Source of the DNA: Mustelus asterias
Lineage: Eukaryota
Direction of reading: 5' to 3'
NCBI RefSeq assembly: GCF_964213995.1
Contig: NC_135830.1
Location: 19,220,001 to 19,284,000 of the forward strand
Length of the DNA stretch: 64,000 nucleotides
The notes under the pieces were generated by a model, which saw only the letters and a program-made list of their open reading frames with translations, did no database searches and was not told where the DNA came from. Below are positions 44,096-62,161 of the stretch, in pieces. The translations under genes were made by a program, and so were the position numbers. Every line of letters begins with the position of its first letter. Positions within the stretch are counted from its first letter, which is position 1.

Positions 44096-45070
44096 ATGGC
44101 GACGTTTGTGAGCTGGAATGCAACAGTCAACCGGCACTGGACGGGGATCGACTCTTCCAATCATACTGGGAATGCCAGTTTTGGGAGACCCGGAGCAATT
44201 GAACAAATTGAAACGCTCGTCGTCCCTTGCCTCCTCAGCTTCACTGTCGTGCTGGGCATTGCTGGGAACTCAATTTCACTGTGGTACATCACAAGACTGA
44301 GGAAAGTTTCATCAGCGACTGATGTTCTCCTGCTTGACCTAACCATCACCAACATCCTGGTTATCCTGGCTTCTATATTTTATCTTATTCACTTGATCCC
44401 TGGATGTCAGTTCTCGAAGCTACTTCTTGAAGCCCGTTTGCTCATCGGTTTGGTCAACATTTATAGCAACCCACCATTCATGGCCGGCATTGCTATTGAC
44501 AGGTACCTCGCTATTTCCCATCCCATCAGGTCCCATGCCTGGAGGAGGCCCCGATACTATGTCGCCCTGTCCATTATAACATGGCTGGCAGTGTTAGCCC
44601 TGACTCTGACGGCCTTTCACTTTACAAGAAACGTCGTAGATGAAAGTATCACCTGCAGGGAGAAGATTTTAACCAGGCGATCTCAGCAAATCTTCATGTT
44701 ATTCTGTGAGGTTATATCATTTGTTATGCCAGTTATCGTCCTGTTGATCTGCTATGCTCTGACAATGAAGAAGCTGAAGGAAGTAGGATCTGGGAAGATA
44801 TCTATGAAGCTGATGAAGACAAAAGTGCTGAAAACCATTTCAGGAATCCTGATTCTTCTCCTTTTCTGCTTTGCCCCTTTTCACATCACAGAACTGTATT
44901 TTTTGTGTGAGGGTCTGATGGATCCATTGAATCGAGCTGCCGTTTTTTACATGTGCCATGTTAAGATCTATATATGGGCCCTCACTTCCTTATCCGCTTT
45001 CCTTAATCCCGTGCTGTACATTTTCAGGTCCCAGAACTTTCAATGGAGGCCGCATTGCTGTGCCGCCTGA
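44096..45070 (+). CDS. Single-exon class A (rhodopsin-like) GPCR, delta-branch-like orphan, 324 aa
   Basis: Seven hydrophobic segments: GIAGN (TM1), LLDLTITN (TM2), IAIDRYLAISHP (TM3), W in TM4, FVMP...ICY (TM5), CFAPFH (TM6), LNPVLY (TM7). Three N-terminal sequons. Confidence 0.92.
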   Translation: MATFVSWNATVNRHWTGIDSSNHTGNASFGRPGAIEQIETLVVPCLLSFTVVLGIAGNSISLWYITRLRKVSSATDVLLLDLTITNILVILASIFYLIHLIPGCQFSKLLLEARLLIGLVNIYSNPPFMAGIAIDRYLAISHPIRSHAWRRPRYYVALSIITWLAVLALTLTAFHFTRNVVDESITCREKILTRRSQQIFMLFCEVISFVMPVIVLLICYALTMKKLKEVGSGKISMKLMKTKVLKTISGILILLLFCFAPFHITELYFLCEGLMDPLNRAAVFYMCHVKIYIWALTSLSAFLNPVLYIFRSQNFQWRPHCCAA

Positions 45071-45849
45071 CATGCTGAAAAAATGTAAACATGATTCGGA
45101 AATCGACAGGGTCTGAATTTCAAATAAATATTACTTTCACATTATCCTCATTGTACTCGGAGAGAATGTGCTCATGTAACGTGTAAACAGATCCATTGTG
45201 TTCGGACCAACGGCGCGATAATAAACCAATGAAGGCCAACTTAACTTTAATACAATCTCTCCAAACTTCAGCGTGTGGCTAGCTAGACGTATTTTGTGCG
45301 TTATGTAAATCGTTATCTTTCATAGTGTATTTCTACCTAATTATCAGAAATTTTAGATCTTTCTATCTGTGTGGTATTAATTGTCCTTCTATTAGCGCAT
45401 CTCATAATCGTTCAATCATTGCCTACGAATCTGTCTTTCCAGATACCTATCTACATGTCTATTTATACTTAGCTATCAGCATGGATGTCGCTATCTACCA
45501 TGGTATATATCCTTTCACGTCTCATATTTGTTTATCTCTCTCTTCCTATTGAAGAAACCTACCGACAGACTCGGTCAGACAACAAGGTCTACAATCTTTC
45601 CCGAGTCACAGCAAAGTCAAAAGACCGTTGTGTCCTCTACACTGGCGACATGAGAATAAATTTTGTCTCTCCCTTGCCAGTAACTTGGTCACCATAAACA
45701 TAAGTGCCAAGAAAACTATGGTCATATCACCCGGTGTGACACCTCAGCGCCGGATCGCGCTAAATAGCCCACTTGAGTGATTAGCTAATTCAGCGACCTG
45801 CAGACAATGGTTCCAATTTCTTGTTCACGATAAAGAAATTGCCAAACTG

Positions 45850-46530
45850 AACCCTTTTGTATCTCTCCCCTCTCACCTTAAGCCTTTGCCCTCTAGTTTT
45901 AGACTCCCCCACTTTGGGAAAAGATGTTGACTTTCTACCTTACCCATGCCTTTCATTATTTTGTAAGCCTCTATAAGATCACCATTAAGACTTCGACGCT
46001 CCAGGCAAAAAAGTCCCAGTCTATCAAACCTCTCCCTATAACTCAAACAATCAAGTCCCAATAACATTCTAGTATATATTTTCGGCACTTTTTCTAGTTT
46101 AATAATATCCTTTCTATGGTAGGGCGACCAGAACTGTACACAGTCTTCCAAGTGTGGCCTTAGCAATGTCTTCTACATCTTCAACAAGAAGTCCCAACTC
46201 GTGTTCACTGTTCTGAGCAATGAAACCAGGCATGCAGAATGCCTTCTTCACCACCCTGTCCTCATGTGACTCCACTTTCAAGGAGCTATGAGCCTGTACC
46301 CCGAGGCCACATTGGAACGTAACTCTCCCCAATGCTCCCATTAACTGAATAAATCTTGCCCTGGTTCGATCTACCAAGACGCATCACCTCGCATTTATTT
46401 AATTCCATTTGCCAATCATCAGCCCACTGGCCCAATTGATCAAGATGCAGTTGCAATCCTAGATAACCTTCTTCATTGTCCACTCTGCCACCAATCATGG
46501 TGTCATCTGCAAACTTACTAACCATGCCGA
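45850..46530 (-). mobile_element. Degenerate CR1 fragment
   Basis: VSKFADDT and LRPHLEDCVQFWSP frames with frameshifts. Confidence 0.8.
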
Positions 46531-60279: not shown

Positions 60280-60879
60280 TGAATGATGGAAAATATTGTC
60301 GGCAGCTTTCAGCAATGCGATGACTCCTGGAGAGGTTCCTTGCACCCTCTAATCACTATGGACAGTTTTAATCACTTTAGACTCCAGGCAGGGAAACATA
60401 GACAATAGCTCAACTGATTAGATTATGCAAGGAGTTCAAATCACAAAGGGAACTCTCCAGAAAACGACCGGCCCAGGCGAAATAGGATCACTTCACCATT
60501 AGCCACAGATCAACCCCACCTATCTATAATGGCTTTTCAATATTTCGCTATTGTGTCACCGCTTTGTGTTAACTGCTGATTGTTTTAGTAGATGCTGATC
60601 GCATAACTTGTAGTAAATGACAATAACCCACGTGGGTCCCATTCATGCTATCAGCAACCGCTTTGAATGAGCCCATTACCATACGTTTGGCGCAAAGTTC
60701 AAAACCCTATAAATTGTAAAGCGCACAATGGCCAGGGGAAGCAGTTGGCTCGCAGCTGTATTCCCCCAGGCCTGTGGTTTGTTATTTTGGACAGGGAATA
60801 AAGCTTGTGTTGCCTTTTGTACTGCACTCATGTCTGCTTGTCTTTTATGCTGGTAGGAAGCAAAAACTTCCCCTTACAG
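60280..60879 (+). mobile_element. Possible solo LTR
   Basis: TATAAA at about 60708, AATAAA at about 60796, a GT-rich downstream tract and a terminal CCCCTTACA. The 5' end and TSD are not resolved. Confidence 0.4.
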
Positions 60880-61252
60880 ATAATATTCAGATACATCTCT
60901 AAGGGAGGTTGACTGAAAGACATTGATGAAAAATTTTCACACATACCAACGTAACCATTTCACAATTCAATAGTTTTCTGCATATCTGTCCATTTCCAGT
61001 CTTCAGAGTTCTTCACCATCTTTACAATCCTGCATCGAGTTGTCTCAGGAATCAATCGGCAGCACTGCTTTCTATTCGTAACAAATAAACATCTTCAGGT
61101 AGACTGAACCAATAAGAGATCATAATGACCTGGAGACAAAACTTATTTCTTTAACAGCCTATGATTGAGATGCGATCTCCCCTTCTATTGTGCAACATCG
61201 GCTCGAAATTTGTCCATAGTTTTTAATTGGCTACTATTTCTCATAACAAAAA

Positions 61253-62161
61253 ATGGCTGTTACTGGGACATGGAATGCAACAGCAACCAGAAGCTGGTTG
61301 GAGATTAACTCAAACAATCAGACTGGAAACTCTAGCATTGGACACCCGCTGGGAAACGTCCGGGAATCGAGCTTCATGGTGCAATTGCGTGTCATTCCCA
61401 TTCTCCCTGGCCCGTGCGTTGTATTGGGAATCATTGGGAATTCTGTCGCACTGTGGCACATCATGCTAAAGGAGAAGATCTCACCGCCAAATGATGTCCT
61501 CCTTCTTCACGTAATCATCACGAACATCTTGATAATCGTGACGTTTGCATTTGCCATTCTGGGAATTATGCACTCAATTATTTCAATGCAAATACCTGAT
61601 TATATTCTGACCTTGACGAACGTATTCTGCCTTTAGGGCAGCCCGGTCTTCATGCCCTGCATTGCTGTTGATCAGTACATCGCTCTTGTCCATCCCATCA
61701 AGTTTTGTGCCTGGAGGAAGCCCCAATATTATGTTGCTCTGTCAATAGCAGCTTGGCTGACAATGTTAACGCTGGAATGTTAACCTGGTACTTATGCTGT
61801 GCCCTGAATTGGTCGTATTTTGCATCCCGATCCTAATCCTGTTGACCTGCTATGCCCTGAGCTGATTGAAGTGGGAGCGGGAAGGAATCTATGGAAATGA
61901 TGAACAAAAAGCGCTAAGAACAATTTTGGCGATTTTAGCTCTTATGCTTTTGTGTTTTGCCCCATCTTACGTCATTGAACTGGTTGTATGTTGAAGAACC
62001 TGCCGGATCCCAGGGAAGAAATCGTGAGGTGGTACTTTTGCAATATTCGGCCGTATACCTGGGCTGTCACTTCTCTGAACGCCGTCCTCAATCCCCTGCT
62101 GTACTTTCTTCGATAAAAAAGTTTTCAGTGGAAAGCAGGTTGCTGTGTAACACGCCAGTAA
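61253..62161 (+). pseudogene. Third GPCR paralog, pseudogene
   Basis: MAVTGTWNATA...LGIIGN...LLHVIITN...CL*GSPVFMPCIAVDQYIALVHP...NPLLYF. TAG at 61634-61636, deletion of ECL2 and several frameshifts. Confidence 0.88.

Follow-up and report, generated by a model that had tools for sequence, protein, structure and literature searches.

Three genes encoding receptors of the G protein-coupled type (GPCRs), denoted A, B and C below, were found in the same orientation in a stretch of 64,000 nucleotides (the window) of the Mustelus asterias genome (NC_135830.1, positions 19,220,001 to 19,284,000, contig C71). The cluster lies inside the complex of IgM and TCR (T-cell receptor) alpha/delta genes, and its features are listed in Table 1. 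The reading frames of genes A and B are open, and the encoded proteins, about 51% identical, have both the 7tm_1 domain and the seven-helix fold of class A receptors (PF00001, E 1.5e-31 for gene A and 2.5e-32 for gene B). No olfactory-receptor family of Pfam matched the two proteins, the only matches being PF00001 and PF10320 (E up to 0.01). The AlphaFold2 model of gene B, built from a 15-sequence alignment, is a bundle of seven transmembrane (TM) helices with a short second extracellular loop (ECL2) and a mean predicted local distance difference test (pLDDT) score of 73.7; a fold search yielded generic class A matches. Exact look-ups of both sequences retrieved no record, and one RefSeq model of M. 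asterias (P0014) is identical to gene A across 267 residues.

Gene C is a pseudogene. Upstream of its TAA (62159-62161) it contains an in-frame TAG (61634-61636) and a second stop codon (62114-62116), a deletion of 24 codons and a frameshift near 61770, and more frameshifts near 61872, 61912 and 61983. The region 61000-62371 has no differences from contigs of two public DNA runs, both from one sample, possibly the assembly's own. Thus the lesions are not assembly errors.

The original prediction, made from the letters of the window, described two intact, diverged paralogs and a dead one, all co-oriented, and the reading frames, the identity level and the lesions of gene C agree with it. The common N-terminal pattern WN..W...NxxGN.S that it noted is visible in all three genes, and the NPPFM motif occurs in genes A (44468) and B (52723).

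Table 1. Features of the window; position 1 is its first nucleotide. [quoted passage not shown]
Feature	Coordinates	Strand	Remarks
Gene A, coding sequence	44096..45070	+	intact class A GPCR, 324 aa, subfamily A; sole aligned member with DRY
Gene B, coding sequence	52324..53325	+	intact class A GPCR, 333 aa, subfamily B, DQY
Gene C, pseudogene	61253..62161	+	nearest are subfamily C proteins P0007 and P0009; stops, 24-codon deletion, several frameshifts
Gene A, putative promoter and non-coding exon 1	42900..43121	+	candidate GT donors 43067, 43120; start approximate
Gene A, putative splice acceptor of coding exon	43780..43803	+	
Gene B, putative TATA box (49170-49181) and non-coding exon 1	49170..49377	+	candidate GT donor 49376
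Gene B, splice acceptor of coding exon	52070..52089	+	used by RefSeq model P0014
Acceptor 5' of gene C	60980..60999	+	homologous to those of A and B
Decayed IgM-type constant exons C2, C3 (with stop), C4 (with secretory tail)	31991..34294	+	10 kb upstream of gene A, co-oriented
Block colinear with the IgM-A'-B' unit of contig C773	31991..55870	+	mostly 82-88% DNA identity, 68-79% in distal pieces
TCR V segments and fragments	1646..22887	.	both strands
TCR V	1646-1990	-	
TCR V	12779-13137	+	stop and 23-RSS
TCR V	15682-15975	+	
TCR V	19804-19854	-	
TCR V	21195-21386	-	
TCR V	22759-22887	+	

Extent, descent and sequence changes of the receptor family

A single-sequence search (6106 candidates) produced 13 relatives with 45-67% identity. 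A profile search retrieved the same 13 at 406-532 bits, followed by a drop to 194-213 bits (47 hits; 7998 candidates scored), and in an unfiltered search of 1.84 billion representative proteins four scored 304-526 bits and the next one 190. The family is present in nine species, all of them elasmobranchs: Scyliorhinus canicula, Mustelus asterias, Carcharodon, Heterodontus, Heptranchias, Chiloscyllium, Leucoraja, Rhinoraja and Narcine. No members from chimaeras or bony vertebrates were among the matches of a word-limited search and of a search displaying one protein per 50% cluster. The automatic RefSeq names clash among close homologues, being GPR183-, SSTR-, opioid-, LPAR6-, CXCR1- and P2Y2-like. 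Literature searches in title listings, with limited coverage of subscription papers, returned no description of this GPCR family, and the accessible part of PMC7677710 has no mention of GPCRs. The family is unnamed, its proteins being already in RefSeq under wrong names.

Trees were constructed from 66 rows (quick) and, with 24 long-branch or redundant rows dropped, from 42 rows (careful); P0006 and P0013 were trimmed ahead of their aberrant tails. In the 42-row tree the family is monophyletic (100/100), its stem measuring 2.25 changes per site, and is united with support 99/99 with a parent clade of genes named 'lysophosphatidic acid receptor 6-like' from sharks, rays, coelacanth, lungfish, amphibians, reptiles, gar and eels. 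The same family and parent grouping is seen in the 66-row quick tree. Judged from these sequences, the family shares descent with this LPAR6-like orphan clade, which possibly is the GPR202 of Rinne et al. (PMC6504862, accessible part), the match being by taxon range alone.

Approximately unbiased (AU) tests were made on a quick tree of 22 rows, 44 of the 66 having been dropped. They reject joining the family to a GPR183-like row (L027, assigned by its pairing in the 66-row tree; p 0.012), to an LPAR6-type row (L023, LPAR6 by reading of its sequence; p 0.021) and to SSTR2 (p 0.009). The grouping of the family with the elasmobranch parents alone is not rejected (p 0.074). The best PDB matches of the A and B proteins reach only 91-92 bits. 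The delta-branch origin proposed in the original prediction is borne out by both trees, and these scores and tests are in line with its failure to assign an ortholog. The phylogeny that it called for yields no characterised one-to-one ortholog; however, a conserved LPAR6-like sister gene can be identified.

In the 42-row tree gene A clusters (99/95) with proteins of catshark and horn shark, and gene B (100/99) with one of catshark. Gene C, which is outside the tree, is by similarity nearest to P0007 of catshark (281 bits) and P0009 of white shark (276 bits), most others scoring 172-235, with 64% identity over its intact half. Thus A, B and C are old subfamilies with counterparts across shark orders, not a recent expansion; what had been predicted as a lineage-specific family is elasmobranch-wide.

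The parent gene of M. asterias (P0021), 32% identical to the family, is found as a pair on a different contig, C72. In the region G000:C72:12093139-12375385 (L014, L015, L030, L086) this canonical gene forms a tandem pair beside two other delta-type GPCRs. The sampled stretches of C72 contain repeats and these two delta-type GPCRs. None of the markers TPI, EMG1, GAPDH and a CHD domain, sought on the idea that C72 is the counterpart of human 12p13, was located on C72; all were on C22 or on small contigs that are unplaced. The 'LPAR6-like' gene on reedfish chr9 sits among huchr9-type genes (PMC10751288, accessible part). Sister to family plus parent (100/99) is another LPAR6-like clade without a name, with sequences from shark, teleosts, frog and bird (L029, G000:C22:22197152-22198063).

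Motifs were counted in 15 family and 18 parent sequences, the residues being numbered by alignment to the parent; two truncated rows are without TM7. C3.25 is present in 0/15 family members and 18/18 parents, and C45.50 is present in all 15. With C3.25 gone in 15/15, the C3.25-C45.50 disulfide of class A is absent from the family. R3.50 is found in a single member, gene A, versus 18/18 parents, DQY standing in the other 14. All 15 have P3.40, the first proline of NPPFM (1/18 in the parent clade), and none has F6.44 (18/18 in the parent clade), which is replaced by leucine. P2.58 and the N-terminal and 7.25 cysteines are lost in all members, the tryptophan of the first extracellular loop (ECL1) is missing in 14/15, D2.50 is kept in 4/15 and changed to asparagine in 11/15, and S3.39 is altered. 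New residues are C7.32 (12/13) and W7.39 (13/13). Retained are D3.49, Y3.51, W4.50, P5.50, Y5.58 and H6.52 (15/15 for the last two) and NPxxY, and the class A anchors N1.50, W4.50, P5.50, P6.50 and P7.50-Y7.53 are present in 13-15 of the 15. In the pocket, E6.55 and W7.39 stand where the parent has Q and M, K/R7.35 and H6.52 being kept. Thus the 'unusual NPPFM' of the original prediction does exist, but amounts to the invariant P3.40, and the loss of C3.25 and the R3.50Q change were overlooked there.

Position 3.50 is encoded by AGG in gene A, CAA in gene B, CAG in gene C and CGG in the dead A copy of the duplicated unit on C773 (A'). Since A has AGG, A' has CGG and the A-type proteins of other species carry Q3.50, this suggests that the arginine of the gene A lineage may be a Q-to-R reversion.

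The family and the parent clade have common words in the intracellular loops ICL1, ICL2 and ICL3 and in helix 8, with 41-58% cross identity in ICL2/ICL3; for the outer segments the cross identity is 9-18%. Unlike the family, the parent clade retains C3.25, DRY, D2.50, the ECL1 tryptophan, the N-terminal/7.25 cysteine pair and a conserved pocket (18/18), and its tail is usually about 40 residues long. The tail of the family after NPxxY has 16-20 residues in 12/13 members, few of them serine or threonine. Pairwise identities in the outer segments are 19, 25 and 36% within the family (n=11) versus 84, 81 and 76% among elasmobranch parents (n=8), and those in the inner segments (ICL1, ICL2, ICL3, TM6, helix 8) are 64-74% versus 58-81%.

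The ratio of nonsynonymous to synonymous substitution rates (dN/dS) was estimated by NG86 and YN00, with region limits drawn from the structure model. By NG86 it is 0.38 (0.27-0.58) for gene B versus its duplicate B' and 0.40 (0.30-0.53) for B versus A. The intracellular parts have 0.15-0.19, and the extracellular parts 0.65-0.79. The family genes are under purifying selection: the ratio, named in the original prediction as a check with 1 as the critical value, is about 0.4 by NG86, with intervals below 1.

Antigen-receptor surroundings and duplicated units

Not only TCR genes, as named in the original prediction, are near the cluster; its nearest neighbour is the remnant of IgM constant exons (Table 1). 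The call of its C2 part is based on a DNA block and a cross-hit to C3. No IgM V, C1 or TM exon was found in the window at 22000-44500. The TCR V segments resume about 73 kb beyond the window end, so that they lie on both sides of the cluster. Thus the predicted linkage to the TCR locus is confirmed, but 'adjoining' has to be replaced by 'inside'. In the antigen-receptor complex (AgRC) of elasmobranchs, IgM clusters are interspersed with TCR alpha/delta V segments (PMC12227049, accessible part), and contig C71, which bears numerous other Ig constant exons and V segments, has a similar arrangement. The terms 'GPCR' and 'G protein' have 0 occurrences in the main text of that paper, and its table S1 has no GPCR.

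Five further GPCR pairs, in each of which A is dead and B intact, were found on contigs C110 (two, inverted), C104, C221 and C773. Together with the window this makes 13 GPCR loci in the genome, 7 of them intact, and no other copy of gene C. Such gain and loss of copies had been predicted. Four of the five extra pairs follow an IgM C4 exon at a distance of about 15 kb, and C221 ends before that point; in the IgM cluster of C773, V, J, C1-C4 and TM exons are present. Among the five units the identity is 98.8-99.9% over stretches of up to 48 kb, and in comparison with the window at 32-56 kb it is mostly 82-88%. Since the units are alike both among themselves and in comparison with the window, the adjacency of IgM and GPCR genes predates both rounds of duplication. 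The DNA-run contig matched by eye to the extra B copies has 5.0x and 3.2x the depth of the gene C contig, which is a hint, depth not being copy number.

In other sharks, the catshark member lies on a contig of 133,841,611 bases, AgRC genes reaching 133,540,320 on chr17, and the white shark members lie on a contig of 20,355,162 bases, AgRC genes reaching 17.1 Mb on chr27. The accessions are unmatched in both cases; the sizes are compatible with long-term linkage and suggest that the family may reside in the AgRC of these two species.

Several other elements were observed in and around the complex. A second IgM C2-C4 set (G000:C71:19317340-19319771, plus strand) is situated about 35 kb past the window end, with no VH or C1 match in the nearby stretch that was searched. 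The region G000:C71:19363724-19397254 (minus strand; L038-L040, L103, L104) contains a tandem array in which 12 near-identical TCR V genes with open frames were found, with a period of about 2.46 kb, the members being 92-100% identical to one of them. TCR V genes and IgM constant exons also occur, near-identical, on dozens of unplaced contigs (C87-C2933), with at least 150 matches each, which makes for a very large amplified region. The J segment in the IgM cluster of C773 (G000:C773:29700-51900; L047, L048, L041, L042) reads C for W in WGxG and may be defective. PSMB5, an AgRC gene, is here on unplaced contig C185: PSMB5-like exons (G000:C185:264814-267781, L067) share this contig with Ig constant exons, as expected for the AgRC. 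Within the window, endogenous retrovirus-like pieces with envelope transmembrane-like and integrase-like open reading frames, recognised by reading their translations, occupy 7563-9820 on the minus strand, and 10847-11436 are 590 N bases.

Possible function and rival explanations

The function is much less certain than the descriptive core, that is, the family, its sister gene, the motif changes and the linkage to IgM in this genome. Our tentative reading, which we put at a little under even chances, is that the elasmobranch GPCR family behind the IgM exons consists of open-pocket sensors with differing ligands and a shared intracellular partner, likeliest a G protein, possibly in leukocytes. 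The loss of C3.25 would untie ECL2 from TM3. The leftover C45.50 would pair with the new C7.32, thus tying ECL2 to TM7 and leaving the pocket open on its TM2-TM3 side; this would be the simplest new pairing. Elsewhere in class A, ECL2 abuts position 7.32. The genomic position alone would point to expression in immune cells, and the automatic names of the family have no match in the main text and one supplement of the nurse shark spleen single-nucleus paper (PMC10529500). A look-up of RNA runs containing gene B listed none, which speaks neither for nor against expression. On the inner side, ICL2, ICL3, Y5.58, NPxxY and helix 8 are conserved and would still engage a G protein, the predicted coupling being weak or non-canonical in members with Q3.50. 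A G protein partner is favoured over arrestin-driven scavenging because the inner loops are strongly conserved and the tail is short with few serines and threonines. The substitution of E6.55 and W7.39 for Q and M would mean ligands other than those of the parent.

The MRGPRs have expanded as gene clusters within particular lineages and are found in sensory and immune cells, and the likeness of the family to them is a functional analogy, these receptors not being in the tree. According to the accessible part of the literature, MRGPRD and MRGPRX resemble the family in having no TM3-ECL2 disulfide, a short ECL2 and altered PIF and sodium-site residues. MrgD, without C3.25, has a replacement disulfide, as proposed for the family, and a shallow pocket (PMC9287403, accessible part). 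However, MrgD is also without C45.50, uses C4.64-C5.33 and keeps R3.50, whereas the family has C45.50 in 15/15, C7.32 and mostly Q3.50.

Several observations weigh against our reading. Among class A receptors 96% have R3.50, and in many of them signalling through G proteins is impaired when this residue is mutated (PMC4353375, accessible part). In subfamily A a cysteine near ECL1 could pair with C45.50 instead of C7.32, and P0015 is without C7.32. By YN00 the overall dN/dS is higher, 0.53-0.59; the extracellular intervals include 1 (0.39-1.49), and thus relaxation explains the outer values as well as diversifying selection does. Some of the five extra units may be haplotype duplicates, the two on C110 not being so, and with such heavy duplication of the region the linkage is possibly passive. 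The placement carries a long-branch caveat, because the family is a long branch, the tree panel is without GPR35, GPR55, GPR20, P2RY8/10, FFAR, HCAR and MRGPR, and the ESM Atlas feature ranking puts GPR35-like clusters first (0.96).

One alternative is that the DQY members do not signal, and bind or remove a ligand or modulate another GPCR, gene A being the exception that regained R3.50. This would suit the replacement of R3.50 in 14/15 and of D2.50 in 11/15, the altered S3.39 and F6.44, the impairment caused by R3.50 mutations (PMC4353375), and the codons at position 3.50, which agree with Q having reverted to R in the lineage of gene A. The altered DRY is seen likewise in atypical chemokine receptors and in the viral receptors EHV2 ORF74 and BILF1. 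However, the family is not derived from chemokine receptors, and it has a very short tail and is without C3.25. The Ser/Thr-rich tail that we take to mark atypical scavengers is absent from the family, and 16-20 residues are generally a poor handle for arrestin. Moreover, the inner face is the best conserved part (64-74% identity, dN/dS 0.15-0.19), Y5.58 and NPxxY are kept, and a natural receptor without R3.50, EHV2 ORF74, still couples to Gi (PMC4353375, accessible part). Thus we regard the loss of signalling as rather unlikely. A comparably low probability is given to the possibility that the genes are passengers, functional receptors that work outside immunity (in skin, gut or sensory tissue, for example), came to lie in a region prone to duplication and are copied with the IgM clusters by proximity. 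Indeed, amplification of TCR V segments and IgM clusters extends over C71 and dozens of unplaced contigs, the five extra A copies were all amplified although dead with lesions of a shared type, the window's own IgM piece is dead, and a variable outside with a conserved inside is generally also a chemosensory pattern. On the other hand, all five extra B copies are intact, B and B' are under purifying selection, and the contig sizes in catshark and white shark would fit, without proving it, long-term residence in the complex.

It is very improbable that the family represents diverged orthologues of GPR183, LPAR6, SSTR, the opioid receptor or GPR35. The automatic RefSeq names and the ESM Atlas matches to GPR35-like clusters would favour this, but the names disagree among close homologues, the M. 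asterias genome has separate GPR183-like, LPAR6-type and SSTR genes, and the three AU tests given above speak against the corresponding groupings, GPR35 being outside that tree. The reading as open-pocket sensors can also be extended to an ancient immune receptor family of the AgRC, that is, lymphocyte GPCRs with an ECL2-TM7 disulfide, a DQY switch and diversifying pockets, copied and regulated together with IgM and guiding or tuning B and T cells through a class of ligands that is not read in this manner by bony vertebrates. This extended version is unlikely.

With this family, the antigen-receptor complex of sharks, from which the origin of adaptive immunity is being reconstructed, gains genes that are not of the immunoglobulin kind. 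The family is also a natural experiment, with purifying selection acting across sharks and rays without C3.25 and mostly without R3.50, beside a canonical sister gene and one Arg-bearing member, and it makes both signalling without R3.50 and the re-routing of the ECL2 disulfide to TM7 directly testable. If the expression is non-immune, this would still be a modest orphan family of structural interest.

Upstream elements and gene models

Each of the three genes has a pyrimidine tract followed by AG 230-290 bases upstream of its ATG (AG at 43802-3 in A, 52088-9 in B and 60998-9 in C). Further upstream of A and B there are homologous elements ending in GT donors (Table 1). Because of these acceptors and donors, a 5' non-coding exon is likely in genes A and B. 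Thus 'intronless', as the genes had been described, is true of the coding region, which is one exon, but probably not of the whole genes. The upstream element of gene A is 84% identical in the C773 copy and can be aligned with that of gene B, and the TATA box of gene B is retained in a duplicate. Part of the exon 1 element of gene B serves as an exon in P0014, and the use of the gene B acceptor and donor by this model is a weak hint at a real exon.

The RefSeq model XP_078056683 (window 44897-52160) leaves gene A in TM6, skips its TM7 and joins the upstream exons of gene B. Similar truncated models exist in Heterodontus and Heptranchias. Such models are either read-through transcripts or model errors. 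The misleading names and some chimeric models keep the family out of sight in transcriptome studies of sharks.

An element of 47 bases, 79% identical upstream of A (42954-43000) and B (49225-49271), contains a TCAC/TTTC-type word, which we take to resemble loosely an IRF/Blimp-1 site.

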